Shown: positions 3,770 through 63,687 of the stretch, piece after piece
Layout: each line of letters begins with the position of its first letter
Numbering within the stretch: position 1 is the first letter of the stretch
NCBI GenBank assembly: GCA_052327205.1
Contig: CM126225.1
Span: 35,588,001 to 35,652,000, forward strand
From: Somniosus microcephalus
Lineage: Eukaryota
Direction: 5' to 3'
DNA length: 64,000 nt
Translations under genes and position numbers: made by a program
Notes under the pieces: model-generated
What the model was told of the DNA's origin: nothing
Databases searched by the model: none
What the model saw: the letters and a program-made list of their open reading frames with translations, nothing else

Positions 3770-4745
3770 CTTCCTTGAAACCTGTTACATCTATAACTTT
3801 TTTCCAGTTTTGACGAAGGGCCATCGACCTGAAACTAGGGGCTGGATTTTGTGAATGGAGACGTGCTGGAGGCAGAACTGCTGCTTGTCGGGTCTCAGTC
3901 CCGCCTCCATCATCTTCTGGCCAACCAGCGGGATTTTCCCTTGATTGACCTTGTTAAGCCCGCCCTGTGGGCTCAGCAGGCCAATTAGGGGGAAGTCACT
4001 GACAGAGCACGCCAACGTCTGACGTGCCATCTATCAAGACTTCTTGAAAGAACAAATGTCAGTGTTTGACAGCTCTGTGAAGCTGTCAAACACTGACATT
4101 CTGTGTAGTTTGATAAGCCCTTGTGTTCAGGACTCATCAAACCTTTCAACTTTGTAGATTTCAAACGACTGTTGGTTCAGAGGATCCAACGGCCAGTCTG
4201 TGAAATTCACAAGGAAGATGTCGGGACTCCCGATCCAGAGCGGATGAAGGCTGTAGGCAGAAACAAAGGTAAGTGAACATTGTCTAACACTTAACTCTCA
4301 CCTTACATACTTACCACTCCACACTTGCACCCATCACTCACCTCTACATCTTACTTTCAGGTCGCTCCGACCCCCGCAGACCTCCTACTCGACTCCTCCA
4401 ACCCAGCGGGGTTCTCCGAGGTCAGAAAGCCTTCAGCTGAAAAGGTAAAATGGGACTAATCCTTTTTTTTGCCTGTTAACTACCTGTTAACAGGCAGTTA
4501 AAAGGAGTCAATCCCTTTCCTGCCTCGAAGAGATGGGACCCAAAGCAGCACATCTTCCTGTCTCCTAGCAAAAGGGCATGGAGGTGGGATGGGGCGGGTT
4601 TGCCCCCACTTTCTGCTACTTTACTGGCAGTCCCGCCTCCATACCCGCCTCCTCGGGACTGAGAAAATCCAGCCCGTTAACTCTGTTTCTCTCTCCACAG
4701 ATGTTGCCTGACCTGCTGAGTATTTCCAGCATTTTCTGTTTTTAT
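3770..4745 (+). mobile_element. Penelope-like pLTR fragment with minimal hammerhead motif, split by a MITE
   Basis: agtt-ttgacga-agggc catc gacct-gaaac (3806-3835) resumes as gttaactctgtttctctctccacagatgttgcc at 4676. Confidence 0.65.
3839..4675 (+). mobile_element. PIF/Harbinger-type MITE, family M1 copy 1
   Basis: TIR gggctggatttt...aaaatccagccc, like the ends of Harbinger A. Internal 20-bp perfect palindrome 4055-4100. TSD not clean. Confidence 0.85.
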
Positions 4746-10917: not shown

Positions 10918-11815
10918 GGGGGGAAAAGTTCAATTGGTTTGCGCCTCCCGTTAGCGCCTTAAGAGGGCGCTAATGGGGCGCAAAGCAACTAGCGCCCCGG
11001 CGCGGCGATGTTTGCGCCGCTCACGAAATTAACTAGACATTTTGCAGCAGCGCTAAACACTACCGCCACGATCTCCTGCGCCGGCACATCGTGACGGCAG
11101 TCGAGTGCGCAACACCCCGGTAGCGCCCCGCACCGGATATTGAGTGGCGGCCCCTACCTTACCGCCTGCCGCTAGCAACAACAGGTTGAGGGGAGCGTTT
11201 TGCAGTCAGGAAGGGACTGGGGGAGCGCTGTTTAAAGGCGACCGCTTCCTGCCTTTTTTTGTTGGTGACATTTTTGCACCACGCATTCTGAGAGAGAGAG
11301 AGAGAGAGACTTCTGGAGAGATTCAACGCTGTGTGAAGGAGTTTTGGGTCCTGAGCAGCACTTTGCAGGTTCATTTTGATTTGCCCTTCCTTGTATTGGT
11401 TTAGAGGAGATTGTGGGTGCTGCACTCTGAGCTCTTTCCCTGGGCCTCTCCATTATTCTTTCCAGCAGATTTGATGTACAGGTCTCTCCAGGCCGAGATT
11501 CAAGGCTGCAATGAGCAGGGTGTGGATGGAGAGCAAGATCAACCCTCCCCTTTAAGAACTGGCCAGTGCCAGTGTGTCTGTGTTCCATTGCTGACTGACA
11601 TCACATGAGCTTCGCCAGCGCTCTGAGGTAGCACCTCGCTCCTCGGCCTTTGCACCTTAAGAGAGGTGTATAGCGCCTGATTTAGCGCTCCAATCACCTC
11701 CAGGGGCGATAAAAGCCAAGTTTGCAGTTGGAGGCGATAATTAGCGGCAGGCGCTAAACTTTGCGCACGGCCGATAATCGCGCCCCAAATGGGGCGATAC
11801 TGAATTTTTCCCCCC
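10918..11815 (+). mobile_element. CpG-rich Harbinger-type MITE, family M2 copy 1
   Basis: TIR gggggaaaa(g)ttca...tgaatttttccccc. 3-bp TSD caa or aag (ambiguous). Highly similar to 55375-56050. Confidence 0.85.
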
Positions 11816-12305
11816 AAGTGCTTTATACATCCAATGCTCCAAAGTTATCACCACATGCTCCCAATAGCCTTGCCAAATAAAGCATCTCATTCATTGGGCC
11901 CAGCTATGTTAAAAATACACGAATATATGCCATTTCTCCTGATAGCCTTAATCTCCCTTATACCAAAATAATTGTCAGAACACATTCCAGTACCAATCAA
12001 CCCAACTTTTATTGATCCATACATTGGGCTGGATTTTGCCAGTGTGGGCGGGCTGGGGCGTGTCAGGTGGGAATCGTGTCAGGACCCCGACTCCAAATTG
12101 AAGTATTGAAAAAGTGGGATTTTCCCCTAATTGGGCAATTGATTTCCTGCGTGTGGGAACCCCTGGCCCATTGAGTCTTTTTATACAGAAAGTCGCCTCT
12201 GATGATGTCATCAATGCTGCTGGATTTAAGGCTTGCAAGCAGCCTTGCTTCTTCTGGAGACTGCAAATGCTTTGCAAATTGTCTGAAGGAGTTAATTTCC
12301 TGACA

Positions 12306-15300
12306 ATGTCCACGATCAAGCAAAAGTGTGCACCACCGTTTGATGAGCCCTCCCTCCAAGCTCTGGTGCAGGGAGCAAGATCTAATAAGGAGGTGCTGTT
12401 CCCTTCCTCAGGGAGAGAAAAGCCACCCCAGCAGACAAAAGCTGTGTGGCTGCAAGTGGCCGAGGAGGTCAACTCCATTTCCATGAGCCGCAGAACCTGG
12501 CTGCAATGCAGGAAGAGGTTTCATGACCTTCTCCACACAGGAAAAGTGAGTATGGCTTTCCCATCACCCTCAATCTGATCCCCATCACCTCTCCTCACCA
12601 GCACTCTGCTTTGCCAACCTCTATCCTCCACATCCCATTTGACACTTACATCCCTGCACCCTTACCCATTCCCTCTCTATGGGCACATTCACCTAACTGT
12701 TCGACCATGCAGCCCTCACTCTTCCTATCACTGTGATGCAATGACAACAACAACTTACAACACACAGGGAGGGTCCTTTGTATCCTTCTAAGCATCTATG
12801 CTATGGATTCTCTACACTCACTCCTTCATTCTCACTCAAACTTCACTTGTGTCCCTCATTGCAGGACAAGAGAGCCCACAATAAGAGGGAAAGAGCCATG
12901 ACAGGAGGAGGGCCACCCTCAGTAGCCCAGCTCACCCACTGGGAGGAGGCGGCCCTGGAAATCGCTGGGATCGAGGACGATACCCAAGTGGGGGACGGAC
13001 AGACAGGCGCCTCACAGCAAGCTGGTGACTGAATAGTTTGGCATCTCTCTCATTGACATTGCATGAGTCACTGATAATGAATCTGATGCTCTAACAGATT
13101 GACTTATGATCATCTGCACTATTCAATGTTCATGTAACCTTGACCTCATATCTCTAACTTTCCTTTACTCCCCCACAGGACCATCGAAAGCCCCCATCCC
13201 AACTGTCCAGGAAGAAGAGCCTGAGCTTCTAGACTCCTCAGAGGAAGCTGCAACCTCTGAGGGCGCAGCATCAGCAGAATTCAGCGCACCCAGCACCAAC
13301 GCAGACACTCACACCTCAGTGGGACCTTCACAAGATAGAGTAGTTTTGGCACCTGGAGTATTACAGCTCACAAGTGAGCATCAGCAGAAGGTGGAGACAG
13401 GGACAGCAATGGAGAGTCCTCGTCGGAGGGCGCAGGACTCTGCCAGCTCGGCTCAGCTGCATGTCAACCCTGTGCCTCTGGGTCCACCCAGAAGGAGAGT
13501 GGTGCTGGAACTCTAGGAACAGGTGCTGGAGTCTCTGGCAGGTTTTGTCTCCAGGGTTGCTGCGAGTGTGGAGCGAATGGATGAGTCCATCGCAAACATG
13601 AGTAGAGCCTTTGTGGAGGCATTGGCGCATGAACATAAGAACATAAGAACATAAGAAATAGGAGCAGGAGTAGGCCAATCGGCCCCTCGAGCCTGCTCCG
13701 CCATTCAATAAGATCATGGCTGATCTGATCCTAACCGCCAATCTACTATCACAGAACCATCTCCTGAATCTAACAGAATTAGACACACGAAATAGGAGCA
13801 GGATCAGGCTACACAGCCCCGGGGCCCGCTCCGCTACCCACAGGGCCATGACCGATCCGAACCTAGACTCATGTCCAAATTCCTGCCCGCTCCCCATAAC
13901 CCATTATTCCCTTTACTTCTAGGAAACTGTCTATTTCTGTTTTAAATTTATGTAATGATGTAGCTTCTACAGCTTTTTGGGGCAGCATATTCCATGGACC
14001 TACCACCCTCTGAGTGAAGTAGTTCCTCCTCATCTCAGTTTTGAAAGAGCAGCCCCTTATTCTAAGACTATGCCCCCTAGTTCTAGTTTCACCCATCATC
14101 GGGAACATCCTCCCCGCATCCACCCGATCCAACCCCTTCACAATCTTATATGTTTCAATAAGATCGCCTCTCATTCTTCTGAACTCCAATGAGTAGAGTC
14201 CCAATCTACTCAACTTCTCCTCATATGTCCATCCCCTCATCCCCGGGATTAACCGAGTGAACCTTCTTTGTACTGACTCGAAAGCAAGTATGTCTTTTCT
14301 TAAGTATGGACACCAAAACTGTATGCAGTATTCCAGGTGCGGTCTCACCAATACCTTGTACAACTGAAGCAATACCTCCCTATTTTTATATTCTATCCCC
14401 CTAGCAATGAAAGCCAACATTCCATTGGCCTTCTTAATCACTTGCTGCACCTGTATACTAACCTTTTGAGTTTCGTGCACCAGGACCTCCAGATCCCTTT
14501 GTACTTCAGTACTTTCCAGTTTCTTGCCATTAAGATAATAACTTGCTCTACGATTTTTCCTGCCAAAGTGCATAACCTCACACTTTCCAGTATTGTATTC
14601 CATCTGCCAAATCTCTGCCCACTTACTTAGCCTGTCTATGTCCCCTTGCAGGTTTTTTATGTCCTCCTCACTCACTACTTTCCCTCCCATCTTAGTATCA
14701 TCTGCAAACTTTGATATGTTACACTCGGTCCCCTCCTCCAAATCGTTAATATAGATTGTAAAGAGTTGGGGACCCAGCACTGACCCCTGTGGAACACCAC
14801 TAGTTACTGATTGCCAGTCCGAGAATGAACCATTTATCCCAACTCTCTGCCTTCTGTTAGATAGCCAATCCTCTATCCATGCCAGAATATTACCCCCAAT
14901 CCCGTGATTTTTTATCTTAAGCAATAATCTTTTGTGTGGCACCTTGCCAAATGCCTTTTGGAAGTCTAAATACACTACGTCCACTGGTTCCCCTTTATCC
15001 ACCCTATATGTTACTTCCTCAAAGAACTCCAGCAAATTTGTCAAACATGACTTCCCCTTCATAAAACCATGCTGACTTTGTCCTATTAAATTATGATTAT
15101 CCAAATGTCCTGTTACTGCCTCCTTAATAATGGACTCCAAAATTTTACCTACCACAGATGTTAGGCTAACCGGTCTATAGTTTCCAGCCTTCTGTCTACT
15201 GCCCTTTTTAAATAAGGGCGTTACATTAGCAGTTTTCCAGTCTGCTGGGACCTTTGCTGACTCCAGGGAGTTTTGGAAAATTATTACCAATGCATCCACA

Positions 15301-15953
15301 ATCCCTACCGCCACTTCCCTCAAGACCCTAGGCATCACCACGGAAAGGATGGCAACCTCCGTGGAAAGGATGGCTACGGTAGAGGAGAGGATGGCTACAG
15401 CCATGGAGGAGCTAAGTCGCCAGAGTGTTGAAAACATGGTCATTGTTCAGAATAGACTGGCATCTCTTGAGGAGCGATGGTCAGCTATTGAGCATAGAAA
15501 CCAAACCTTCATGGAAGTCCTCTGGAGTAGGACTTCCAGTGCAGAAACGGGCCCTCATGGCCCCCCTGAAGTGCAGCAAGTTGCTATCAAGCCACTTGCT
15601 AGCACGAAGTGGGGCTGACCCATGAGAGGGATGTTGGTGGCAGACAACAAGGAAGTGGGGGCTCCTCTCCAAGCACTTACATGACCATGCCACTGCGAAG
15701 CCCTCAGTCAAAGTCCCACCAGAGTCCTCACCCAACTGAGATGGGTGTCTCATCCCCTGCACAGCCGCAGGAGCAGCAGACTGTTGCCGAGCCCTCACAG
15801 GTTCGCAACCCCAGAGGATGGCCACCAAAGGTGTCGAGACAGGAGCAGCAAGAAAGTGAGCAAGGGGCTTCCACATCTGCTGAAGCCACAGGGGAAGCAC
15901 CACGTAGGAGCACGCCTAAGAGGAAGAGAATGCACAAGTGGTCACAAGGGTAG
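12306..15953 (+). pseudogene. Harbinger Myb/SANT-like DNA-binding protein gene, 3 exons (12306-12545, 12865-13024, 13179-15953)
   Basis: Trihelix motif F..(E/D)..L..LV...W..VA..V...RTW.QC.KRF.DL. GT-AG introns in compatible phases. Premature TAG at 13514, CR1 insertion, and frameshifts. Confidence 0.85.
13631..15332 (-). mobile_element. Young 5'-truncated CR1 LINE inserted in the Myb gene
   Basis: Uninterrupted RT frame 15332-13869 (YLDFQKAF, GVPQGS, KFADD). (TTCTTATG)n tail at 13631-13656. Flanks rejoin to the sequence seen in element B. Confidence 0.95.
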
Positions 15954-16200
15954 TCACTTGGGTGTTATGTTGTGTTTATTTTTGAAATGCCATCAGTTGC
16001 TTGTTGTAATAAAAATTTCTGATGGCAAACTGTTGAAGTTGTGGCCTGTGTCATTTCACAAATGGGACTTCCACATTGAGGGCTTAGAGTGACTTGCAAT
16101 TGTCAGTATGGTGGTCCGAGTGATAGGAATCTGCAGGTTCTTGTCCATTGTCGATGCTCTGCTTAGAAGGTGCGAGGCAAAAGTGTTTGATTGTGCAGGC

Positions 16201-16426
16201 TAAGCAAATCCGGCCAACATGAGTGCGTCCCTTGAATCCCAGGCAGCAATGTGGTCGCATGCTGGCGCCTTCTGGCCTGTGCAGTTTCAGGTGGGTGACT
16301 AGCAGCTTGGCGCTCCTGTTGTTGCTCCTGCTGTTGGTGCTGCTGTTTTTCATGGTTCTGCTGCTGCCGCGGCTGGTCTTCGTCCGAATCTGATGTCCAG
16401 GCGGAGAGGAAATAAATGGTTCCCAT
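16201..16426 (-). pseudogene. Harbinger transposase remnant (N-terminus fused to C-terminus)
   Basis: MGTIYFL...ARRRQ matches 57907-58032. It is joined directly to sequence matching 59360-59420. Confidence 0.85.
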
Positions 16427-17199
16427 GCTTCTACTGTATACCTCAGTTGAGGAAGCGCTCAGTCAAGGTGGGGAGAGGGGTCACACTGGAGATGGGTGTC
16501 AGGCTCCAAACTTCCACAACAATGAGTAGGCCGCTAAAAGTTCCCCCAGACCTGAGACAACAAAGTTCTGCCACCTGCAAATGGTGAAAACTCCTTTTTA
16601 ATGGTGGAGCTGCAGCTGTTACTAAGCAATCCACTTGTGAGGCCGCCATCATTACCTGGCGTGTTCCAGAGGAGGCATGTAGGATGGGGGAAATGTCTAA
16701 CAATCAGAAAGGCCTCTCAAAATGGGATTATAGAGGCAATTAAGTGGTTGATAAGGGCCGGCGGGATGAAAAGAGGGTCACGCACTTGGGAAAATTGCTC
16801 AGAGGCAGGATGGAGGCGGGATCAGGCCCGCCCGCCATTTTGGGGGATTTTACCACCTCGCACGCCTCCAAACCCGCCTCCTCGTGCTTGGCAAAATCGA
16901 GCCCATTGTGTCGTGCAAGTGTGTTTTGTCTGGTGATTTCCCTTTTGTGTAAGTATAAAGTGTGTGTACTTCCTAACTGCATACTCCTGTTAAGTGTTCC
17001 CAGTGGGAAAAAGAAATGGATAACTATTGGGTGTCACTGTCCGCTAGGGATGAAGACTGGCCCTTTACTTCCTTGCGCTGGGTGAGTAGATGGCCTTGCA
17101 TCTATAAAATGTTGATGCAGTGGCTAGTTGGGCCTGTATGTTCAGGGACACACCTGTAATTATTGAATGGCATGGGAGGGAGATGCAGATGTAACGTTA

Positions 17200-18510
17200 C
17201 CTTGGGAGACATCTTAGAAAGGGCTCAGAGGAGGTTTTCCAGGATGTTACCCGTGATGAGGGACTTCAGTCATGAGTTGGAAAAGTTACGACTGTTCTCC
17301 TTGGAACAGAGAAGGTTAAGAGGCGACCTAATAGAGGTTTACAAGATGATGTGAGGTTTTGATAGAGTAGATAGAGTTAGAGGTCATAGATTCAAAATCA
17401 TTGGCAAAAGATCTCGAGGGGAGATGAGGAGAATTTTTTTTCACTGAGTTCTCAGGATCTGGAATGCTCGACCTAAAAAGGCGGTGGAAGCTGATCCCAT
17501 AAATAATTTTAAAAGGGAGTTGGACAGGTACTCAAGGATGAGGAACTTACAGGGTTACGGACAAAAAGCAGGGATGTGGGACTGAGTACGACTGCTGTTT
17601 CAAAGGGGTAGATTTTCCCGAACCTTTCGGGAAGAAGGCGGGACTTCCCCTTTCGGGTTTGTGACCCGCCTACTTCGACGTCCAGCCAATCCGCGCGATT
17701 TTCCCTTGATTGACCTTGTTGAGCCCACCCAGCGGGCTCAGCAGGCCAATTAAGGGCCACCCGGCAACAGGTGACGTCACAGACTGCAATTTCATCTGTC
17801 AAGAGATTTTGACAGATGAAATATCAGTGTTTCACAGCTGTTTGAAGCTGTGAAACACTGACACTCTGAGTTCTACCATGAGTCATTCTGCACAGACTCA
17901 GTTAGAACTCTTACCAGCACTCAAAGCTGAAGGCTGTCACTTTTCACAGATTGCAGCCGTTCAGCTTTCAGTGCCGGCTGAGTGATGGGCTCCCGACGGC
18001 TACAGGAAGAAAGGCTGTGAAGGTAAGTACAGGTAAGTAAAAGTTCTTTACACACTTTAGACACACCAAACACACTTACCTTTGCACTCATGCACCCATC
18101 ACTCACCTGAGCGCCAACATCGCGACCCCTCCAACTCCTTCAACCCGACGGCCCACCTGCTCTAACCTGGCGTGGTTTGGAGCCGTCGGGAAACCCACAC
18201 GACACCCCTCAAAATAGGGATTAGGCTAAAAACTGCCTGTTAACTACCTGTTAACAGGCAGTTAATTGGCACTAATCCCTTCCCGCCTGGTTTCGGCGGG
18301 TCCCAGTGCGGGGCGGGTACCCGCCGCCCCTGAAACTTACGTGGGGCGGGGTTTTGGGCGGGATGGTGTCGGGACCCCCAAATTCGGGAGTTTCCCCCCC
18401 CCCCCCCACACGCCTGAAACCCCGCCTGACGGCTGGGGGAAAATCGGGGCCAAAGAGTCAGCACAGGCACAATGGGCCTCTTTCTGTGCTGTAAGTTTCT
18501 CTGATTCTGT
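17200..18510 (+). mobile_element. CR1 3' fragment interrupted by a MITE
   Basis: LERAQRRFSRM...LFSLEQRRLRGDLIEVYK. The 3' UTR resumes after 18451. Confidence 0.85.
17605..18451 (+). mobile_element. Harbinger-type MITE, family M1 copy 2
   Basis: Imperfect TIR ggggtagattttccc / gggaaaatcggggcc. TSD AAA. Double hairpin at 17789-17861. Confidence 0.88.
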
Positions 18511-27362: not shown

Positions 27363-28129
27363 GGCCCTGAAATTAGGATCGGGAGCTTGCCGCGCGTGCA
27401 AGCCCCCGATGTGCACTTACCCGGCGCGCTGACATTTCAATCCTGGCCCGCATTGCATTTCCTCTCACTGGCCCGCTTGAGGTCCTGCCGCGCTGTGCGT
27501 GCATGGCCCAGCGGCGTACTTAGTGCGATGAGCTGGCTGGGATCACGTGAGCACAGGGCAACCAATGGGAGATTGCAAAAGTTCATTCATGAGTTTGATA
27601 GTGAGAGCTGTCAAACTCATGAAAACTCCTGGCCCCAAAACAGTACTTAAACTTGAAAGAAAATTTAAAAAAACATTGCACTACTTAAATGAACCATAAA
27701 TAACTGTAAAAAAACTATTTTAAACAACAATTTGGAAATTTGAAAAAAATTATTATATAAAAAATCGGGGCTAAAACTAAACTTACCTTACTGTAAATTC
27801 TTTAAAAATAATAAACCTGTGGAAATTTTTTTTATAAATTGTATTAATAGACCACTTACCTGTAAAACTAAGTACTTACGTGTGGTTTTTCAATGCATAA
27901 AAACCGGAGGCCTTTACACATGCGCAACTCTCTAAAAATAAAGGAAATCCAAGTCGCACGCGCTGCCTGTGTAGTTGCACGCGTTCAGCCTCTTGACTCC
28001 TTGGGTCAGAGGAGAGGAAATGTCGGTTTTCCCCACATGCGCTGTGCATGCTGAAAACCGGCAATTCCTCCGGGCACACGTGTGAGTACCCCGTCCATAC
28101 TCACGTGTTGGGAGAGGAATTACTGGGCC
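27363..28129. mobile_element. Harbinger-type MITE in CR1 X
   Basis: TIR ggccctgaaatt / aattactgggcc. TSD ATT. CR1 RT is continuous once it is removed. Confidence 0.9.
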
Positions 28130-29038
28130 ATTATATTCCATCTGCCATGTTCTCACCCACTCACCGAACCTGTCGAGATCCCCTTGAAGCCTCTTCACAT
28201 CCTCTTCACAACTGACACTGCCACCTAGCTTTGTATCATCAGCAAATTTGGAAATGTTACATTTAGTCCCCTCATCCAAATCATTGATATAGATTGTGAA
28301 TAGCTGGGGCCCAAGCACCGATCCTTGCGATACCCCACTAGTCACAGCCTGCCATCCTGAAAAAGACCCGTTTATCCCTACTCTTTGTTTTCTGTCTGTT
28401 AACCAATTCTCAATCCATGCTAGTATATCACCCCCAATTCCATGTGCCCTAATTTTGTTCACCAACCTCTTGTGTGGGACCTTATCGAAGGCCCTCTGAA
28501 AATCCAAATACACCACATCTACCAGTTCCCCTTTGTCTACTCCACTAGTTACATCCTCAAAGAACTCCAATAGGTTTGTTAAACAGGATTTCCCTTTCAT
28601 AAATCCATGTTGACTCTGCCCAATCTTACTATTAGTTTCTAAGTGCCCAGTTATTGCATCCTTTATAATAGATTCCAGCATTTTCCCAACTACTGATATG
28701 AGGCTAACAGGTCTGTAGTTCCTCGTTTTCTCTCTCCCTCCTTTCTTAAATAGCGGGGTTACATTTGCTATTCTCCAATCTGCAGGAACCATTCCAGAAT
28801 CTATAGAATTTTGGAAGATGACAACCAATGCGTCCACTATTCCAATGGCCACCTCTTTCAAAACCCTAGGATGTAGGTCATCCGGTCCTTGGGATTTATC
28901 GACTTTTAGTCCCATTAATTTTGCTACTACTGTTTTTTTTATAATAATTTCTTTAAGTTACTCATTCTCGCCACACCCTTGGTTTTCTCGTATTTCTGGG
29001 AGGTTTTTTGTGTTTTCCTCCGTGAAGACGGGAACAAA

Positions 29039-29873
29039 GGGCAGGATTTTCATTGGGCCGTAGAGGCGGGATTGGAGGCGTGTGGGGGGTTAAAATCCTG
29101 AAATCGGAGGGCACGAACCCATCCCGCCCCCAATCCACCTCCATGCCAGTTTCAAAGGAGGTGGGTACCCGACCCGCACTGGGACCCGCCTCCCCGAGGC
29201 GGGAAGGGGATTAGTGCTAATTAACTGCCTGTTAACAGGTAGTTAACAGGCTGTTTTTAGCCTAATCCCTATTTTCATTGGTGAAATGTGGGATTCCCGA
29301 CGGCTCCAAACCACGCCAAGTTAGCGAGGCGGGCCGTCAGGATGAAGGGCTTGGCGGGTTCGAGATGTCCGGTGTTCAGATGAGTGATGGGTGTATGAGT
29401 GCAGAGGTAAGTGTGTTTGGTGTGTGTAAAGTGTTTAAAGAAGTTTTACTTACATGTACTTACCTTTACAGCCTTCCTTCCTTCAGGTCTCGGGAGTCCC
29501 TCATCTCACCGGCAGAATAGCCGCGAGCTGTCAAAAGTTGCAGCATTCAGCTTTCTGTTCCGGGGAGATCTCTAAATCATCCTGAGAGGAAGGAATTAAC
29601 CTGGAGTACAGATTGTCAGTGTTTGACAGCTTCAAACAGCTGTCAAACACTGATATTTCATCTGTCAAAAGGTCTTGACAGATGAAATATCAATCTGTGA
29701 CATCACCTGTTGCCGGGTGGCCCTTAATTGGCCTGCTGAGCCTGCTGGGCGGGCTCAACAAGGTTAATCAAGTCAAAATCGCGTGGGTTGGCTAGAACTC
29801 GATGGAGGCGGGACTACAACCTCGAAAGTTGTAGTCCCACCCCCTACCCGCCTCCTCAATGAAAATCCAGCCC
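29039..29873 (-). mobile_element. Harbinger-type MITE, family M1 copy 3
   Basis: TIR gggcaggattttca / tgaaaatccagccc. TSD AAA. Reverse-complement homology to 17605-18451. Confidence 0.92.
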
Positions 29874-31207: not shown

Positions 31208-33545
31208 ACAAGGGAAATTAGGGACAGCATAAGATCCAAGGAGAGGACATATAAATTGGCCAGAAAAAGCAGCAAACCTGAGGATCGGGAGCAGTTTAGG
31301 ATTCAGCAAAGGAGGACAAAGGGATTAATTAAGAGGGGGAAAATAGAGTATGAGAGTAAGCTTGCAGGGAACATAAAAAGTGACTGTAAAAGCTTCTACA
31401 GGAAACTTTTTTTTATCCGGCACCGACGGGACCGACATGGTGCCGGTTCATCAACAATTCCGGATAACCGAAAGCTATAGTAAAAGATACGGAGCTGACA
31501 GCTCCGTATAAAGCAACAAACCTGTTGCACAGGTTCAGAACAATGGCCACAAGCTCCAAGCATCTCTGTAGCTTAGCAACAGCTGCAGTCACACCCTTGC
31601 ACGGCAACAGATCGAGGAAGGCAAGTAATAAAACTTACCTGAACCTACTCCTGAATTTTGCCGGTTAACCGAGATTTCCGGTTATTTAGGTGCCGGTAAA
31701 TCGAAAGTTTCCTGTATAGATAGGTAAAGAGAAAAAGATTGGTGAAGTCAAGCGTAGGTCCCTTGCAGTCAGAATCAAGGGAATTTATAATGGGGAACAA
31801 AGAAATGGCTGACCAATTAAATACATACTTTGGTTCTGTCTTCACAAAGGAGGACACAAATAACCTCCCAGAGATGTCGGGAACATAGGGTCTAATGAGA
31901 GGGAGGAACTGAATGAAATCAGTATTTGTAGGGAAATGGTGTTAGGGAAATTGACGGGATTGAAGGCCGATAAATCCCCAGGGCCTGATAATCTACATCC
32001 TAGGGTACTCAAGGAAGTGGCCCTAGAAATAGCAGATGCATTGCTGGTCATCTTCCAAAATTCTATAGACTCTGGAACAGTTCCCATGGATTGGAGGGTA
32101 GCTAATGTAACCCCACTATTCAAAAAAGGTGGTAGAGAGAAAACGGGGAATTACAGACCGGTAAGCCTGACATCGGTAGTGGGGAAAATGCTAGAGTCCA
32201 TTATAAAAGATGTAATAGCAGAGCACTTGGAAAACAGTGACTGGATCGGACAAAGTCAACATGGATTTACGAAAGGTAAATCGTGCTAGACTAATCTACT
32301 GGAATTTTTTGAGGATATAACTGGTAGAATAGATAAGGGAGAACCAGTGGATGTGGTGTATTTGGACTTTCAGAAGGCTTTCGAAAAGGTCCTGCATAAG
32401 AGATTAGCATGTAAAGTTAAAGCACATGGGATTGGGGGTAAGGTACTGACTTGGATAGAGAACTGGTTGGCAGACAGGAAGCAAAGAGTTGGAATAAACG
32501 GGTCTTTTTCCGAGTGGCAGGCAGTGACTAGTGGTGTACCGCAGGGATCGGTGCTAGGACCCCAGCTATTCACAATATATATTCATGATCTAGATGAGGG
32601 AACTAGATGTAATATCTCCAAGTTTGCAGACGACACAAAGCTGGGTGGGCGTGTGTGCTGTGAGGAGGATGCCAAGAAACTCCAGTATGATTTGGACAGG
32701 TTGGGTGATTGGGCAGATGCATGGCAGATGCAGTATAATGTGGATAAATGCAAGGTTATCCACTTTGGTGACAAAAACAGGAAGGCAGATTATTATCTGA
32801 ACGGCAATAGATTGAGAGAAGGGGAAGTGCAATGAGACCTGGGTGTCCTTGTGCACCAGTCGCTGAAGGTAAGCATGCAGATACAGCAGGCGGTTAAGAA
32901 GGCAAATGGTATGTTGGCCTTCATAGCGAGAGGATTCGAGTACAGGAGCAAGGATGTCTTGCTGCAGTTGTGCAGGTCCTTGGTGAGACCACACCTTGAG
33001 TATTGTGCGCCTTATGTGAGGAAGGATGTTCTTGCCATGGAGGGAGTGCAGCGAAGATTCACCAGACTGATACCTGGGATGGTAGGAATGACGTATGAGG
33101 AGAGATTGGGCCGATTGGGCTTATATTCGCTGGAGTTTAAAAGAATGAGAGGGGATCTCATTTAAACTTATAAAATTCTAACAGGACTAGACAGACTAGA
33201 TGCAGGAAGGATGTTCCCGATGGCAGGGGAGTCCAGAACCAGGGATCACAGTCTAAAGATAAGGGGTAAGCCATTTAGGACAGAGATGAGGAGGAATTTC
33301 TTCACCCAGAGAGTGGTGAACCTGTGGAATTCTCTACCACAAAAGGCAGTTGAGGCCAATTCATTAAATATATTCAAGAAGGAGTAAGATATATTTCTTA
33401 AGGCTAAAGGGATCAAGGGATATGGGGAGACAGCAGGGACTGGGTACTGAGTTTGGATGATCAGCCATGATCTCATTAAATGGCGGAGCAGGCTCGAGGG
33501 ACCGAATGGCCTACTCCTGCTCCTATCTTCTATGTTTTTATGTTT
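31208..33545 (+). mobile_element. CR1 LINE Y nested antisense in CR1 X
   Basis: RT pieces 31936-33165. Tail ttctatgtttttatgtttcta. CTATA duplicated at 31203-31207 and 33546-33550. Confidence 0.92.
31399..31714. mobile_element. Tc1/mariner (pogo-like) MITE in CR1 Y
   Basis: TIR caggaaacttt...ccggcacc / ggtgccgg...aaagtttcctg. TA TSD. Confidence 0.85.
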
Positions 33546-34613
33546 CTATACACAACTCCCACCAATGTTTTCCACCCTTTGCTGTTTCTTAGCTCTACCC
33601 AAACTGATTCCAGTTCTACATCACGATCAGTCGAGCCAAGATCTTTTATCTCTACAGTAACAATCTCATCCCGTATTAACAGCACTACGCCACCTCCTTT
33701 TCCTTTTTGTCTGTCCTTCCTAAATGTTGAGTACCCTGGACCATTCAGTTTCCAGCTTGGCTTACCCTGCAACCATGTCTCTGTAATGGCAATTACATCA
33801 TACCCATTTACTTCTATTAGTGCCATTAATTCATCCACCTTGTTGCGAATGCTACGTGCATTTAGATAAAGTGCCTTCAACTTTGCCTGTTTAATATTTT
33901 TCTGCACTTTGACCCTCTTTACTGTTTGCCTTTTTTTCTGCTCCCTACTAGTTTTGCTGACTACTTTTCTAACTTGCACTTCCAGCTTTGTTTCTCTCCA
34001 TTCTGGGCCCACACTTAGGTTCCCAGCCCCCTGACAAACTAGTTTAAATCCTTCCCAACAGCACTAGCAAATCGCCCTGCGAGGATATGAATAGAAATAG
34101 TGAGAATTATGTTATTTTGCATCACGGTTGGTTTCGCATGGCTGTTTTCAGTGTCAGCAAAATGTGAAGAGCAGTTTTACCTTGGCAGTCCTGGTAAGGT
34201 CATTACATTTTTTATGGCTCTGCAGCCAGGTCTTGGGAAAAATGCTGCCCCACTCAGCCACTTCTCCGCTTGTCTCCTAATATATTTGGCTCGGCATCCG
34301 TCTACCATTTGAAGGAAACAGGGACTCCTTCCTGGCCCTGCCTTGTTCAATAAGCACGTCCACAGCAGTACCAAAATATTGGGATACCCTGACTGCCGAA
34401 AATTTGGCTGCTGCTCCAGGAACACAATTTCCACACCCCGCCTTTAAGAGGTGCAGGCTGGCTTTAAAAAGTGCCAGATTTCCCACCCTCCCAAACGGCG
34501 AGGTGCCTATGAGCAGTGCAATGAGTGCTCACAGCTCACCAGTCAAATTTAACTGAGGCCAGATTACGAAAATCAATTGGGCCGCCAGCTGATGTAATTG
34601 GGCAGGTGGAGCT

Positions 34614-34897
34614 GATGTAATCGGGTGGGAAGAGTGCATGTAATCGGGTGGGAAGAGCGGATGTTTTCGGGTGGGAAGAGCGGATGTAATTGGGTGGGAA
34701 GAATGGATGTCTTCGGGTGGGAAGAGCGGATGTATTCGGGTGGGAAGAGCGGATGTAATCGGGTGGGAAGAGCGGATGTAATCGGGTGGGAAGAGCGGAT
34801 GTATTCGGGTGGGAAGAGCGGATGTATTCGGGTGGGAAGAACGGATGTATTCGGGTGGGAAGAGCGGATGTATTCGGGTAGGAAGAGCAGATGTATT
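34614..34897 (+). repeat. 23-bp G-rich minisatellite, about 12 copies
   Basis: Unit gatgtawtcgggtgggaagagcg read directly. Confidence 0.95.
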
Positions 34898-35039
34898 AGG
34901 GCGGGTGCAGCAGTTGACCCACCCACCACATGCCTGATGTACGCCACACATGAAAATCAACCCCACTAATTCCTCCTTGAATTCTGGCAGCAAAGCTAGT
35001 CATGGAAAATACCATGAAGAGTTTCATGGCATGTCATAG

Positions 35040-40565: not shown

Positions 40566-41102
40566 ACTCCCTTCAGCTGTGCTTGAGATGGGAAGCTGAT
40601 TTATCACATTAATACAGATGCCTGATATGAATCTCCAGTGGATTTCAATTGTAAATTAAAATATAGAGCAAGCATTGGACAGGTAGTTTAATTAAGGCCT
40701 CCTCTTGTATGAACTGACAGGGATCGCCTTCACTATAAATCTGGGGTTGAGCATGGGAATGTCTGTAAGTTCCTATTCAACTCACATTATTGTGAATAAA
40801 ACTGGAAGTGATGGCAAAGGAGTTTCAAACTCTAAAGGAGATTTGGAGCCAGGACAGTTGAGTCAGATATATTTTGAGTTTCTTTTTTTTAATCCATGTA
40901 GGTTTTCTCCTGCTAGTTAGGTTTCTTTATGACATTGTAGGAATCGTCAGATCCCTAGCTGAAATACTGAGGTCGAGTCAGTCCGATAATTAAACGAAGT
41001 TTAATGTAAACTAAAGAACAAACAATGGAATGCAGGAGAAACAATAAACAGGTCTTTTCTTAAGGCTGGCTTCACGAGGTCTGACCTGGGAACCTCCCAG
41101 CC

Positions 41103-41167
41103 TGACGTCATGACGTCATCACGTTTCCCGCCGTTCGGGACGTCACGTGACCAACGTGATGACGTCA
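41103..41167. promoter_or_regulatory. Cluster of CRE (TGACGTCA x3) and an E-box in the Gypsy LTR, repeated in the other LTR
   Basis: TGACGTCA at 41103, 41111 and 41160. gacgtCACGTGac at 41139-41151. Confidence 0.6.
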
Positions 41168-41489
41168 TCGCGCTGGTTCTGGAACTTACCGAGAACGGGT
41201 TATTTACAAACAGTAAACAAACATAGGTGCTGTAGCACTCTGTTAAAGGCAGTTATATAGTCATACAGGAGTCCCTTGGTGGCTTTGCCACATGCGCCCC
41301 CCCAGAAGTGTCTTTAACCACAAAAGTCAATCGCAGAGGAGGTTGGACAAGCCTGTTTGAATGACTCCGATATTCCCGGAGAGGAATGGGCTGGGCAGAC
41401 GATGAGCTGGCCTGCGGAACAGTCCGGTCAGGTGTGGCGGCAGCGGGCGGCCGCCCACGACGCGGTGGCTGTGCTGCCTCGACCGGTCG

Positions 41490-56050: not shown

Positions 56051-57906
56051 AACATCTCTTGGGCTGGACACCCAAGAAGACTACAAAGAGCACAATTTTT
56101 TAAAAAAGATTACAGAGATGGTCAGGGTGGGAGTTTTTTTTTACGTAGCCATAGTTGAAGTGGCCAGAGGCAGGTGGGCAGGTGCTGAAAAGTGGCAGCG
56201 GGAGACCTTGAAGAAAAAATAAATAGAATCACTTTAAAAATCATCCAAAAATTAACATAACGTATAATTTAAAGATAAAACTTGCCTGAAGAACATACCT
56301 AAAGAGAAACCAAGATGGAGGATAGAGCTCCTGAAAATTTCCAGAAGGACAATAGTAGTATTGAAAAAAAAAAGGAAAGATGAGAAAGATTGTGTGAGAT
56401 GGTTGTGATGTCATCACTTTAGCCTCATCGTACAATTCACAGTTATGGTAAGGGAATTATTCTGCAGATTTATAGAGGAATTAAAAGACCAGCTAGCCAA
56501 TAATGAAAAACATAGGCTTGTGTACCATGCAAATAATTGGTTTGCCAAGTGACAAAAAGCAAATTAGTGGAGTAGTGATTGGAATAGTAATAGTCCCAAT
56601 ACAGCTTTGAGTTCATTATTGTCACTATATCACCTTGACAGGTTATATCAGTGTTGAGGCTGAATATTTATGCTGAGCTTGCTTGCATGGTTGGTTCTAA
56701 CTAACTAACAGCTAATTAAAAATGTAATTCAAGCATCTGAGAAATCATATTGGGGCTTTACAATCCTTTAGCCACTCATGGTTTTGCTGTTGTACCACCA
56801 GTGATCTAATTTTTATTATAAAATAAAAGTATTAATAGAAATTAAAAAATTGAGAGAGTGAGCTTTATCTCATTGCCACCGCAAGGTAGCATAAGGTGGT
56901 GCTGGTTTCCATTTCTTTTGCTGACAGCCAGGCGTGTCTAAGGGCAGTCAGTATGACGGTGTGGCCAGCACTGCACAGCCTCTGCAGTCTTGCATTCTTC
57001 TTCCACATCCCAGATATCGCACGCATTTTATCCATTGTGGGGAAGGATGAAAGACTGAGTAAACCTGGCTGCTGTTCAAGTCCCGAGTTCACAGCCAATT
57101 GGGCAGCCGGGCACGGCGTAAACATTGAGCACTTGAAAATAACGTAAGGAACTATGGTTAAAAAACCATCAAATTTCATATACTGTGAAAAATACTGTCA
57201 AATGTCCAGAAAAAGAATGTTAGCAACCATTTCTAGAAGCCTTTTTAAAGAATCTTTCCCCTGTCGTTTATCAGATGAGTCCTTAAACTGTGGCCCCACC
57301 TGTCTGTTCAGGTGGGCATAAACGATGCCGTGGCACTATTCAAAGAAGAGCAGGAAAGGAAGACTTGCATTTATATAATGGCCGCGATATTGCCGGCGCT
57401 CAGAGGGCAGGTTTGGAGTCGGGTCAGGTGGTAAAATTGCAAATAATGACAGCGGGTTCCGATCCCGTCGTCAACCCGCCTCCGTCCAGCTTTGCCGAAG
57501 GCAGGCTCCCAGACTCCCGATCGGTCCCGCCACCAAGCGGCGGGATAGGCCCTTAAGACAGTTAACTGCTTGTTAACTGCCTGGATAATGCTATTTTGAC
57601 AGCCCTTTTAGATTTTGCCAGTTTTTCTGCGTGTTCCACGCCGTTCCCAAACCATGCCAACTGATTGTGTTGGGTTCACAAGCGGCTGCCTGCTTGACAG
57701 CTGAAGCTCCAGCATAAAAACGGAGCTCTCAACAAGGATCAGTTACAGGTGGCAGAACTTTGTTTTTTCAGGTCTTGGAAAATTTTTTGCAGGTCTACTG
57801 ATCTTGGAAGTGGTGAAGCTGAGATCCATCTCCACTGTGACTTCCTGGGAAAACCCTCTCCCCACATTGACTGAGTGCTTCCTCAACTGAGATATCTACC
57901 AGCAGC

Positions 57907-59420
57907 ATGGGAACCATTTATTTCCTTTCATCCTGGTCCTCAGATTTGGAGGAAGAGCAGCTGCGGCAGCAGCAGAACCAGGAACAACCTCCTGCTCACC
58001 CACCTGATGCTGCACAGGGCAGAAGGCGTCAGCGCAGGAATGCACGTCGCCGCAGGTGATACCCCCAACACAGGGTTTACAGGCCAAGGATGATCTTCCT
58101 CAACATGACTGAGCAGCAGTGCCAAAGGAGGTTGAGACTTTCGCGAGAGGTAGTCGCTGACATCTGCGCAATTCTGCACCAACACCTGGAGCCCAGAGGA
58201 ACGTGTGGACACTCCTTACCAGTGGCTGTCAAAGTCACCACCGCCCTCAATTTTTTTGCTTCAGGGTCCTTCCAGGGCTCATCAGCAGACATCAGCGGCA
58301 TCTCCCAGTCAGCTGCACACACTTGCATCATGCAGGTTATCGATGCCCTCTTTGCAAAGGCGCACTTTTTTCCTTTTAATTTTTTCCACCCCTTTGTTTT
58401 GGGTCCTCCTTCCCCCCCCCACCCCCACCCCCCCCCCCTCCTTTCCTTTTGTTTCTCTCTCTCACCTGGCAGCTGTCCTTATCCTGCCAGTACACTTCAC
58501 ACCTAATCTCAGCTGCCTTTTGTCTCCACGGGCCCATTACCATCTCATCTGGCTTCTAATACCTTTTATTGTCTCCTTTTCTTCTTTTGTTCGATCGCAG
58601 CTTTGCCTTCGATCTTTTTATTTTCTTTCCAGTTTTGAAGAAGGGTTTCAACCCGAAATGTCAACTCAAATTTCTCTCCACGGATGTTGCCTGACCTGCT
58701 GAGTTTTTCCAGCATTCTCTGTTGTTATTTCGCACAATTACATCTACTTCTCAACAGATCAAGCAAGTGTAACCACGCGTGCGGTTGGCTTTGCAAATAT
58801 AGCAGGCTTGCCAAGGGTGCAGGGCATCGTAGACTGCACACATGTGGCTCTTAGGGCACCCCATCACAACCCAGCTGTTTTTGTCAACCACAAGGGCTTC
58901 CACTCCCTTAACGTGCCACTGGTGTGTACCCTGGCAGTTGTCATGACTCGTTCATCCTGTGGCAGTCTAGTGTGCCTCCGCTCTTCAATCTGCCAATCCA
59001 ACTTTCCAGATGGCTACTTGGAGACAAGGGCTGAAGATGTGGCTGATGGCGCCATTGAGGAGGCCATCAAATGAAGCTGAGGAGCACTACAATGCCAGCC
59101 ACATTTCAACCAGATCCATCATCGAGTAAACCATTGGCTTGCTGAAGATGCGATTCAGATGCCTTGACAGATCAGGTGGAGCCCTACAGTATTTAGCAGC
59201 CAGGGTCTCCAGAATCATCGTGGTCTGCTGTGCACTACACAACATCGCACAGCTGCATGACGAACAAATGGCTCAACGCATAACCTCCTCAGATGAGGAG
59301 GAGGAGGATGAGGATGAGGAAGAAGACCTTGCGGAGGCGGATCAGCCAGCTGCAGCAGCACGCGAGCACATTGCTGCCCGGGATGCAAGGGATGCACTAA
59401 TATTTGCCAGATTCGCTTAG
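57907..59420 (+). pseudogene. Harbinger DDE transposase (HARBI1-like)
   Basis: [54 protein letters not shown]. Frameshifts and a Penelope insertion. Confidence 0.93.
58366..58731 (+). mobile_element. Penelope-like fragment with a minimal hammerhead motif (58631-58666)
   Basis: Pyrimidine-rich tract plus pLTR. CGCAC duplicated at the flanks. The transposase rejoins (AKAH|NYIYF). Confidence 0.75.
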
Positions 59421-59679
59421 GTAGACTAATCAAACACATGTGGCTGGCACCTTCTTATCACACCATACACAATGAACAAGAAGCTGTGGGTTCCTCTCAC
59501 TCTGACCACCATCATTAGAAATGCAAGTCGCCCTGAGCCCTCAATGTGCAACTTCCATTTCCCAGATCACATAGGCCAGAACTTCAACTGTTTGCCATCA
59601 CTTCTGTTTAATCCATTCACAAAAGGATGACAATGGCAAAATTTATACACAACAGAACACCCAAGTGACTACACTTGTG

Positions 59680-61332
59680 ACTAATTGTGCTTTATCTTCC
59701 TCTTACGCGTGCTTCTACATGGTGCTTCCCCTGTGGCTTCAGCTCACTTTCATGTTGCTCCTGCTTCGACATCTTTGGCGGACGCCCTCTGGGTTTGCAA
59801 GCCTGTGAGGGCTCGGCAGCAGTCTGCTCCTCCTCCGGAGATGTCAGTCTATTCTGCAAGTTCACCGTGTTTTCCAGACTCTGGTGACTTATTCCCTCCA
59901 AGGCCATAGCCATCCTCTCCTCTACCCTAGCCATCCTTTCCAGAGAGGTAACCATCCTTACCACGGAGGTTGCCATCCTTTCCATGGTGGTGCGTTCATG
60001 CGCCTTTGCCTGCACAAAGGCACTGCTCATGTTAAGAGATGGACTCCTCCTTCCTCTCCACACTCGCAGTAACCCCGGAGACAAAACTTGCCAGAGACTC
60101 CTGCACTTGTTCCTGGAGTTCCAGCACCACTCTCTTTCTGGATGGACCCAGAGGCACAGGGTCAACATGCAGATGAGCCGAGCTGGAAGCACCCTGCTGC
60201 CTCCGACGAGGCCTCTCCATTGCTGTCCCTGTCTCCACCATCTTCTGATGCTCACTTGTGAGCTGTGATACACCAGGTGACAACACTACTCTATCTCGCG
60301 AAGGTCCCACCGAGGTGTGCGTTTCTGCGCTGGTGCTGGGTGCACTTAATTCTGCTGAAGCTGCACCCTCAGAGGTTGCAGGTTCATCTGAGGAGTCTTC
60401 CAGCTCAGGCTCATCCTCCTGGACAGTGGGGAGGGGGGCTGTCAATGGTCCTGTGGGGGAGTAAAGGCATGAGTTACACATGTGGTATTAATGTAGCGTG
60501 TACATGGAATAGTGCAGATCATCATAAGTCAATCTGTTTGGGCATCAGATGCCATATCAGTCACTCATGCAATGTAAAAGAGAGATGCAAATCTATTCTG
60601 TCACCAGCTTGCTCTGCTACGCCCGTCTGACCGTCCCCCACTTCCAGATCATCACCTCCAGTTATTTCCAGGGCCGCCTCCTCAGCATTGGTGAGATGGG
60701 CTATGGAAGGTGGCCCTCCTCCTGTCATAGCCCTCTCCCTCTTATTGTGGGCTCTCTTTTCCTGCAATGAGGGACATAAGTGGAGTTTGAGTGAGAATGA
60801 TGGAGTGAGTGTAGAGAATCCATAGCATAGATGTTTAGAAGGAGACAAAGATGGAGTGAGGTGCCAAGACCAAGGGCCCTCCCTGTGCGTTGTTAGTTGT
60901 CATAGCATAACAGTGATAGCGAGTGTGAGGGCAACATAGTCGAATAGTGAAGTGATTGTGTACATAGAGAGAGAGGGATGGTTAAGGGTGTAAGGGTAAA
61001 GTGGGATGTGCAGGAGTAGGTTGACAATGCAGAGTGCTGGTGATGAGACGAGAAGGGCAGCAGATTGAGGCCAAGTGTGATGTTATATTCACTTTTCCTG
61101 AGCGGGCCAGGTCATTGAACCTTTTTCTGCACTGTATCCAGGTTCGAGTGCACATGGATCTGGAGCTCACCTCCTGTGCAATTTGCAGCCAGGCTGTTTT
61201 TGTTTACTGTGGTGGCTTCTTCCTCCCAGAGGATGGGAACAGGACCTTCTTGCAACCTCTGACTCCCTCCACAAGAGCATGGAGGGAGGCATCATCAAAT
61301 CGGGGAGAGACCTTGGCCCTTGAGGCAGTCAT
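59680..61332 (-). pseudogene. Harbinger Myb/SANT-like gene, 3 exons (61332-61093, 60761-60605, 60450-about 59680)
   Basis: PRFDDASLHALVEGV...WLQIAQEV...RTWIQCRKRFNDL. Same intron positions as element A. In-frame TAA near 61205. Confidence 0.88.
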
Positions 61333-61564
61333 GTCAGCAGTTGTCAGTATGAAATCCAGCAGCAAAAAATGAGAGCATGAACCAAGGCTGCATGGACCCC
61401 TTAAATGCAGCTGACTAACAGACGTCAGCAGAGGCGAGTTACAGACTCAAAAGACTAATTGGCAAAATCGCAAATTTTTACCGGCTGAAAGCGGCACGGG
61501 ACCGGAACCCGCCGACCACTTGACCCACACCCAACCCGCCACCAATGGGAAAATCGCGGCCAAT

Positions 61565-62854: not shown

Positions 62855-63687
62855 GGGCTCGATTTTCCAAGCCCCGAGGAGGCGGGTTTGGAGGCGGGAG
62901 TGGTGGGAAAATTGCAAAATCGGGGGGCAGGAACCCATCCCGCCCCCCCAACCTGCCTCCATGCCAATGTCCCAGGAGGCGGGGACCCGACCTGTGCTGG
63001 GAGCCGCCTCCCCGAGACGGGAAGGGGATTAGTGCCAATTAACTGCCTGTTAACAGGTAGTTAACAAGCAGTTTTCTGCCTAATCCCTATTTTTAAGCCC
63101 TGAAGTGTGGGCTTCCCGACAGCTCCGAACCACGCCAAGTTAGCGAGGCAGACCGTGGGTCTGAAGGGGTTGGAGGGGTCGAGATGTCCGTTGTGCAGGT
63201 GAGTGATGGGTGCATGTGTGCAGAGGTAAGTGTGTGAGGTAAGTGTAAAGTGTTTAATAAGTTTCACTTACCTTTACTTTCTCCTGCAGGCTTCCTTGCT
63301 TCAGTTCTCGGGAGTCCCTCAGCTCACCGGCACAGAAAGCAGAATGGCCGCTGAACTGTCAAAAGCTGCAGCCTCTGCTTTCTGGTCTGGAGAGATCTCT
63401 AACTGAGTCTGAGTAGAAGGACTCAAGTTAGAAGACAGATTGTCAGCGTTGCAGCTTCACAGAGCTGTCCAACGCTGATTTTTCATCTGTCAAAAGCTCT
63501 TGACAGATGAAATGTCAATCGCTGACATCACCAGTAACCAGGTGTCCCTTAATTTGCCTGCTGAGCCCGCTGGGTGGTCACTCAAGGGAAAATAGTGTGA
63601 GTTGGCCACAAGTCAATGGAGGCGGGACTACAACCCAAAAAGTGGGAGTCCCGCCTCCAAAAGCTCCCCATTGACAAAATCCAGCCC
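62855..63687 (-). mobile_element. Harbinger-type MITE, family M1 copy 4
   Basis: TIR gggctcgatttt / aaaatccagccc. Collinear with 29039-29873. Confidence 0.9.

Follow-up and report, generated by a model that had tools for sequence, protein, structure and literature searches.

Constrained donor-like motifs in the core of a Harbinger-type MITE of Somniosus microcephalus

Introduction

Why should a short, non-coding DNA transposon carry a cluster of 5′ splice-site motifs in its middle? The question is raised by M1, a family with four copies in a 64,000-nt stretch of the Somniosus microcephalus genome (assembly GCA_052327205.1, contig CM126225.1, forward-strand positions 35,588,001 to 35,652,000; hereafter the window). 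The initial annotation described donor motifs facing each other on both strands of the core. It proposed either a portable promoter, first exon and donor working in both orientations, or a U1 landing pad within host introns.

MITE interiors are commonly taken for neutral filler between protein-binding ends. M1 instead shows a fixed length and a constrained internal cassette. Its copies are young, number in the tens of thousands and stem from many source lineages, so that selection at the level of transposition can be separated from decay after insertion.

Results

M1 is a non-coding Harbinger-type MITE

M1 is classed as a Harbinger-type MITE because its ends match those of the two-gene elements A and B, it is flanked by 3-bp target duplications and its terminal inverted repeats (TIRs) are short. 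Genome searches with the four window copies each gave at least 40 scored, nearly full-length relatives, and 30 per search were analysed. Of these 120 copies, 81 lie between identical 3-bp flanks, most of them rich in A/T. The target is palindromic, with A at −7 in 108 and T at +7 in 99. All four groups have imperfect, G-starting TIRs of about 12 bp, as PIF/Harbinger elements do. The GC boxes, which had been placed inside the TIR, are thus subterminal. The initial list of four copies stands, with the boundary of copy 3 corrected to 29039 (Table 1).

The element is short, uniform in length, high in copy number and without coding capacity. The four window copies represent four different subfamilies, whose majority sequences measure 844–845 bp and are only 63–86% identical to one another; individual copies diverge from their own group majority by 2.8–4.5%. 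A coding remnant was considered and rejected, as the four subfamilies share no open reading frame and give no translated transposase or Myb match. Exact motif matches in the genome, strand-balanced, number 18,210, 27,935 and 22,989; these are lower bounds, and the second, for an 18-mer of the D1 block, sets M1 at a minimum of 27,935 copies. CpG sites decay fivefold faster than other sites (9.0% vs 1.8%), and most M1 copies are therefore germline-methylated.

Unlike 3-bp flanks occur in 39 of the 120 copies analysed (L001–L120), more than 3–4% decay would give; the excess may come from recombination between copies. M1 insertions also recur at identical spots of other repeats, such as a SINE-tail-like site in L003, L004, L045, L052, L072 and L086.

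Table 1. Positions in the window of M1, its internal features and the two-gene elements
Feature	Position	Strand	Remarks
M1 copy 1	3839..4675	+	most distant subfamily; three right-to-left donors
Element A, defective two-gene Harbinger	12026..16904		Myb/SANT exon at 12306 (+), transposase start on −
Left target site duplication AAA, copy 2	17602..17604		3 bp
M1 copy 2	17605..18451	+	847 bp; short imperfect TIRs
Left CCAAT/GC-box block	17704..17753	+	7 lineage changes vs 60.9 expected; left end resembles element A Myb-gene end
CRE-like palindrome TGACGTCA (name presumptive)	17772..17779		from sequence
Two DNA inverted repeats of TGACAG/CTGTCA words	17787..17863		29 changes vs 95.3 expected, a partly circular count as the hairpin is the sampling motif for 61 copies
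One-stranded RNA coverage zone	17875..18126		left to right if the usual library convention holds
Arm complementary to D1 block	17976..17991	+	unconstrained; complementarity greater in copy-2 lineage
Second acceptor-like YAG, A2	18000..18002	−	kept in 51/61 copies
Acceptor-like CAG, A1	18015..18017	−	YAG kept in 59/61 copies
Predicted GT-AG intron, D1 to A1	18015..18106	−	92 nt; no splicing seen in two RNA runs
Two plus-strand 'donors'	18020..18038	+	complement of branch-point-like ACTTAC and pyrimidine tract; unconstrained as donors
Donor D2	18074..18082	−	lineage-constrained
Donor D1 and 10 further conserved bases (+7 to +16)	18091..18109	−	27,935 exact 18-mer genome matches
33-bp right-hand inverted repeat	18233..18265		invariant in four majorities; 18,210 exact matches; kin of element B transposase-side end
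Right target site duplication AAA, copy 2	18452..18454		3 bp
M1 copy 3	29039..29873	−	sits within CR1-like fragment
Element B, defective two-gene Harbinger	57378..61562		transposase +, Myb −
M1 copy 4	62855..63687	−

Donor-like motifs are clustered and in excess

The donor-like motifs that the initial annotation had listed are present in all four M1 copies. In copy 2 the donor GT lies at 18023 and 18033 on the plus strand and at 18079 and 18106 on the minus strand. Copy 1 has motifs at 4269 (plus) and 4297, 4309 and 4336 (minus), and copy 4 at 63196, 63223, 63236 and 63265. Copy 3 has one on window-plus (29404) and one on window-minus (29457), and its outer donor near 29379 is mutated.

The window contains 13 perfect MAG/GTRAGT donors; 100 shuffles averaged 2.41, and none had as many as 13. 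Eight of the 13 fall within the M1 copies, which make up about 5% of the window. Four lie in three unrelated small elements (27781, 27854, 31633 and 54888), and one ends an apparent host exon (47989). Clusters of three or four donors (at least 8/9 match) within 110 bp arose in 1, 0, 0 and 0 of 1000 dinucleotide shuffles of the respective subfamily majorities.

The core reads right to left as a probable intron

Read from right to left, the M1 core is likely a 92-nt intron with two or three donors. Donor D1 comes first and D2 27 nt on, then ACTTAC (or a variant of it), pyrimidines and a CAG (A1), with a second YAG (A2) beyond; a third donor is present in the copy-1 and copy-4 lineages. The complement of the donor GTRAGT is ACTYAC, which matches the branch-point consensus yUnAy, and the plus motif at 18033 is therefore read as the complement of a putative branch point. 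The facing plus-strand 'donors' are thus likely just the complement of a branch point and its pyrimidine tract. The other plus motif, at 18023, arose within the tract of the copy-2 and copy-3 lineages.

Several details fit this reading. The A of the putative branch point lies 20 nt from the AG in all four majorities, though the intervening bases differ. This A and the next base are unchanged on internal branches while their neighbours vary. The variants CTAAC, CTCAC, ATTAC and ATGAC are poor plus-strand donors. In A2 the AG is nearly fixed, −3 toggles between C and T, and −4 is variable.

A pattern search of 61 copies recovered the ordered signals of a U2-type intron (GT donor, branch point, pyrimidine tract and YAG) on one strand; removal from RNA was not found in two runs mapped on copy 2. 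D1 and an acceptor occur together in 50 of the 61, and a branch-point word lies 15–35 nt upstream in 36. Among the 50 copies with both ends, the predicted intron measures exactly 92 nt in 22 and 82 nt in 10; in 10 of the 61 a tract shorter by 10 nt brings A1 too near the branch point. A lineage only 79% identical (L373) retains D1, D2 and A1. Precise loss of the predicted intron was found in none of 181 aligned copies.

In copy 1 and its related lineages, a mirror intron can also be read on the plus strand at 4269–4360, with donor 4269, CACTCAC, pyrimidines and a CAG at 4358–4360; it too measures 92 nt and overlaps the minus-strand one. Its acceptor is lost in the other three subfamilies, and the RNA end at about element position 523 (see below) falls there. 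As a general reading of M1, the mirror intron was rejected, its acceptor being confined to copy-1-like lineages.

Right-to-left donors are constrained along source lineages and decay almost neutrally after insertion

Changes were assigned by parsimony to internal and terminal branches of trees, using non-CpG columns. One set comprised 181 copies, the 120 best matches and 61 full-length hairpin-sampled copies, with 30 partial copies and one duplicate excluded. A second comprised 77 copies (61 + 16) selected solely by motifs outside the core.

The right-to-left donors hardly change along source lineages. In approximate counts, affected by subfamily recombination and by gap placement round a 10-nt repeat, the 181 copies have one internal change in D1 and three in D2 against 11.9 expected, and 11 and 15 in the plus-strand motifs. 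The 77 copies have one and two against 12.0, with 10 and 19 for the plus-strand motifs, and the lowest of 217 background 9-column windows has three. The 10-nt repeat may raise the plus-strand counts but does not affect a G-to-T loss of the +5 G from the plus-strand motif in 16 of 61 copies. The acceptor A1 has no change against 4.0 expected in the larger set (P 0.019) and one, C to T, against 4.0 in the smaller (P 0.09). The symmetry between strands that the initial annotation had seen is therefore not borne out: only the donors read right to left are constrained, and the left-to-right motifs change at the background rate. Its suspicion that the donors are more than passively decaying sequence holds at the level of element lineages.

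After insertion, donors decay at a neutral or nearly neutral rate. Pooled, 60 of 4200 donor sites changed vs 1573 of 85,677 (P 0.058). Base-matched counts are 15 vs 20.6 expected for D1 and 12 vs 19.3 for D2, and singleton changes give 8 vs 11.9 and 12 vs 11.5. Motifs that served the host, as a U1 landing pad or portable first exon, should stay conserved once inserted; the near-neutral singleton changes speak against this, and the constraint is therefore not host-level conservation. Selection on source copies with neutral decay afterwards implies that the cassette aids the element's own movement.

Constraint also passes beyond the donor consensus. Positions +7 to +16 of D1 have three changes against 13.4 expected, and a donor-less AAGTG at columns 450–454 is likewise fixed (both in the 77 copies). 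These observations favour the main rival of an intron, which we consider unlikely but weigh most heavily among the alternatives: the core would be an array of DNA-binding sites, CACTYAC-like words spaced 12–13 bp apart, that mimic donors by coincidence. Such sites would serve the element's Myb/SANT protein or a host factor and would be kept for assembly of the transposition complex. Selection on DNA needs no RNA step, and splicing was not seen in two RNA runs. For the Harbinger-derived protein MSANTD3, a CACTCAC-like motif would also favour binding; our literature search did not confirm that motif. Passages of PMC9392472 and PMC2836001 describe a Harbinger Myb-like protein that binds element DNA and recruits the transposase, which fits this rival, and part of PMC9179366 likewise reports binding of element DNA by such a protein. 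However, the same words on the opposite strand are unconstrained. Binding sites predict neither the acceptor-like CAG nor the C/T toggle of A2 nor the fixed −20 spacing. Other invariant repeats of M1, the TGACAG/TTAACAG hairpins with counterparts in element B, suit a binding role better, and perfect donors also occur in a TA-flanked, non-Harbinger element (31398–31716).

RNA from the M1 core is strongly one-stranded, with no donor use among the joints listed

Two raw-read RNA runs of one study, X9 and X10, were chosen by species label, and 24–31% of each was read; they were mapped twice, at 85% to copy 3 and at 90% to the middle part of copy 2. The M1 core is transcribed, with one-stranded coverage in both runs. 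One pair orientation dominates at 18065–18083 (4445 vs 269 in X10, 2209 vs 554 in X9), and the ratio is about 1:1 at the right hairpin in both. A 10- to 20-fold peak of RNA at the core was rejected as it stood: all subfamilies share the core, and part of the peak is the resulting mapping bias. Simulation left a broader one-stranded zone. That simulation, of 92 genomic matches for X10 only with blastn as aligner stand-in and unreliable in the left third, gave dominant-strand values of 4.3–5.0 over 18008–18121, 2.2–3.6 over 17875–18007 and 0.15–0.33 beyond 18198. Several subfamilies feed the RNA, with copy-2-like alleles over-represented, partly through reference bias.

A discrete read start lies at 18126, with 404 molecules against an adjacent depth of 2020 in X10. 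Reads from other subfamilies clipped at 18110 carry only 16–17 loose letters in both runs. The RNA end at 18126 is therefore real, or else a strong priming site. If the library follows the usual convention, in which the first mate is antisense, the RNA is read left to right; it is then antisense to the predicted intron and ends 20 nt past the complement of D1. Under the opposite convention, it starts 20 nt before D1 and is unspliced. As a strand calibrator, reads of the flanking CR1 disagree between X9 and X10.

Under neither convention do these runs give evidence that the intron or a plus-strand donor functions. Both joints listed for copy 2 are non-GT-AG in the two runs (tissues not specified), and no 18015–18106 junction is among the 15 of 85 joints shown for the copy 3 mapping. 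Junctions from any M1 donor are likewise missing from the joints and best loose ends listed in both mappings. On copy 2 the six best-supported loose-end rows of each run, out of lists with 259 further rows, are all M1 sequence. If rows are ranked by read count, donor use below about 76 reads (X9) or 188 reads (X10) would go undetected.

These data bear on the two original proposals, which we now regard as very improbable: a portable unit of promoter, first exon and donor that works in both directions, or a U1 landing pad that serves host introns. GC and CCAAT boxes at both ends speak for a two-way unit, as do a plus-strand G/GTRAG kept in 50 of 61 copies, the copy-1 mirror acceptor and facing donors about 65 nt apart in the separate family M3. 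Under the usual convention, left to right is also the transcribed strand, and one test after insertion gave a somewhat low joint count for D1 and D2 (27 vs 39.9). Against it, the plus-strand motifs change at the background rate and the low D2 count is gone when singleton changes alone are used. Beyond the plus-strand donors, RNA depth climbs rather than drops, and the clipped reads at 18027 run on as M1 sequence.

Promoter-like blocks, inverted repeats and folding

The promoter-like blocks proposed for M1 are real and constrained, as the CCAAT block illustrates (Table 1). The palindrome at 17772..17779 we take to be CRE-like. From their words, we infer that the TGACAG/CTGTCA repeats are candidate sites of a Myb/SANT protein.

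The core also folds. In copies 2 and 4 the plus motif can pair with D2 and the upstream arm with the D1 block (z −1.97 and −2.12), a marginal fold equalled by 11 and 5 of 200 shuffles. In the copy-2 lineage, the duplex of upstream arm and D1 went from −18 to −32 kcal/mol. Together with an RNA that has a discrete end, this pairing argues for a fold-back, either an imperfect central palindrome whose arms have been copied onto each other or a structured non-coding RNA read left to right. We consider the fold-back the least probable of the readings. Apart from the marginal folding, pairing in copy-1 lineages is no better than in controls, the left arms are unconstrained, and a single fixed arm is left unexplained. 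None of 11 Rfam matches comes near its cut-off (best E 0.095, 25.5 bits vs 83), and U1 snRNA or another RNA family was accordingly rejected as the identity of M1.

Relation to the two-gene elements A and B

Elements A and B are defective two-gene Harbingers, and their genes converge, as first described. Element A has a Myb/SANT exon and a PF13873 match above cut-off; element B has a weak match to PF13359 (DDE_Tnp_4) below cut-off (E 5e-4). The right end of element A is 79% like that of M1 over 107 bp, and matches of the M1 right end to A- and B-family ends reach E 1.6e-19, as expected of homology to two-gene elements. Compared with the transposase-side ends of A and B, the right 340 nt of M1 give z scores of 22–28 for nt 13–180 and at most 5.5 for nt 180–340. 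By kinship of sequence, these alignments show the right end of M1 to be the transposase-promoter end. At the left, the copy-1 subfamily resembles the Myb side of element A (z 7.2), and copy 4 does not. No match to families A or B was detectable for the intron region (z about 0–1), and alignment of the ATG region with A and B was not significant.

A search for an autonomous parent returned M1 copies throughout: 92 right-hairpin matches (90 loci), all 30 for D1 and all 30 for the left block, in three overlapping samples from the first 45 Mb of one contig. Some of the copies so sampled are partial or interrupted. No coding element with the M1 core appeared among the 60 Myb or transposase loci listed for PF13873 and transposase-exon queries, or through the end of element A.

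A parent matters for the possibility, which we judge improbable, that the core is a passive remnant. It would be the 5′ untranslated intron of a rare autonomous element and selected there only, with the right halves of M1 refreshed by gap repair or recombination. The identity of the right end argues for such a remnant. So does an ATG that follows A2 by about 55 nt in the subfamilies of copies 3 and 4, 489 from the end vs 480 in element A, a likeness not significant by alignment. Two different right termini within the copy-2 group are an apparent sign of exchange. Set against these, the hairpin, D1 and left-block matches offer no autonomous context, and families A and B are without the cassette. 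All M1 lineages, moreover, are collinear and 844–845 bp long at up to 37% divergence, which indicates long evolution as a MITE.

Elsewhere, loci L126–L150 represent a Myb-bearing Harbinger family, very young and high in copy number, whose first Myb intron contains a 54-bp tandem repeat that varies in number. At G000:C2:378883040-378893489, four transposase-exon matches about 3.4 kb apart form a tandem array of a B-family element.

Discussion

Our favoured explanation, held tentatively and at somewhat less than an even chance, is that the M1 core is a promoter-intron cassette from the transposase side, maintained because selection acts on the copies that transpose. It may have begun as the 5′ untranslated intron of a transposase gene. 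Copies with promoter boxes and U1-binding or intron signals would be transcribed in the germline, and transcribed copies would stay open and unsilenced. Transposase and Myb protein acting in trans would, in turn, cut out open copies at a higher rate, and selection on the signals would thus serve the element rather than the host. With donors so close together, the intron would for the most part remain unspliced in ordinary tissue, as happens with the extra U1 sites of the P element.

In favour of the promoter-intron cassette we count the three unrelated small elements that hold four more of the 13 perfect donors. Against it we count the lack of a junction for the predicted intron among the joints listed in two RNA runs, the constraint on A1, weak when taken alone, the conservation beyond the donor consensus and RNA that is antisense under the usual convention. 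To these are added an intron region without a match in A or B, the missing parent and the germline methylation of most copies. The idea can be widened: non-coding DNA transposons here may be selected for promoter boxes and U1 or intron signals, their own RNA-level activity raising the chance of cut-and-paste. We hold this less likely than not. It is suggested as a general rule in this genome because four mutually unrelated small elements, M1 included, account for 12 of the window's 13 perfect donors, and because a discrete RNA from one strand crosses the M1 cassette.

M1 resembles Tourist-like PIF/Harbinger MITEs, such as mPing and zebrafish Harbinger3N_DR, in being short and non-coding with 3-bp target duplications and short TIRs. 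It is about twice the length of mPing. It differs in its putative donor, branch point and acceptor, an internal cassette under lineage-level constraint. The full-text literature searched, which leaves aside most subscription papers and Repbase, listed no paper on such constraint of splice signals within animal MITEs. Tourist-like MITEs need transposase and a Myb-like protein in trans, according to a portion of PMC2836001.

The third intron of the Drosophila P element offers a likeness: there too, a DNA transposon has extra 5′ splice-site-like motifs near a donor. U1 binding at pseudo-donors in the P element exonic silencer blocks splicing in the soma, as an excerpt of PMC7776569 has it. By analogy, this silencer may be the nearest precedent for clustered U1 sites. 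In the P element, which is autonomous, the silencer sits upstream within a coding exon; the extra donors of M1 lie 27 and 40 nt downstream in a non-coding element, and an upstream donor-like word of the silencer type is confined to copy-1 lineages.

Introner elements are non-autonomous DNA transposons with splice sites at their own ends, and the whole element is spliced out. M1 is likewise a non-autonomous DNA transposon with putative splice sites. Unlike in introners, these lie about 340 and 410 nt inside the ends (element positions 412–503 of 845).

Introns can shield transgenes from HUSH silencing even when unspliced (in the portion of PMC8770142 available). In the same portion, longer introns protected better, engineered splice sites gave no protection by themselves, and the targets were long intronless transcripts; protection was poor from both short introns and spliced stuffer sequences. 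HUSH escape is thus no ready explanation for M1, an 845-bp MITE whose predicted 92-nt intron makes a poor fit.

If the constraint acts on RNA, then transcription and U1 engagement would be part of mobilising a cut-and-paste parasite. If it acts on DNA, a Harbinger Myb site mimicking the donor consensus would seed perfect donors genome-wide. In both cases, new exons could be built from some 30,000 or more ready-made donors.

Other elements in the window

Three further small elements contain donor motifs. M2 (27370–28135) is a young MITE family with GGCC-type ends and at least 39 other copies at 94–97%, within a CR1-like fragment. On one strand it has three donors and several acceptor-like words, and a donor-like word lies near one end. 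M3 (54480–55185) is an older MITE family whose 20 aligned copies are 75–83% like the window copy; most of the 20 pair a perfect donor with a donor-like word that faces it from about 65 nt away, with no acceptor 20 nt beyond. The third, at 31398–31716, is about 315 bp long with TA flanks, CAGGAAACTTT inverted ends and a perfect donor. Its ends are non-Harbinger, and we take it to be Tc1/mariner-like.

Apparent host exons lie on the plus strand at 51449–51591 and 47943–47991. The peptide of the former ends in GLFPNFNT, presumably from the ZNF385 family of proteins; the host exon gave no match in Pfam or Atlas. Two copies of a GC-rich Harbinger-like MITE, 89–92% alike in aligned blocks, occupy 10920–11817 and 55375–56051, and a further pair lies at about 21365 and 61565. 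A Gypsy-like LTR element at 40983–46208 has identical 283-bp terminal blocks, and its reverse transcriptase region is broken by a 65-bp tandem array (43557–44360). A second tandem array, of a 23-bp repeat, spans 34541–34954.
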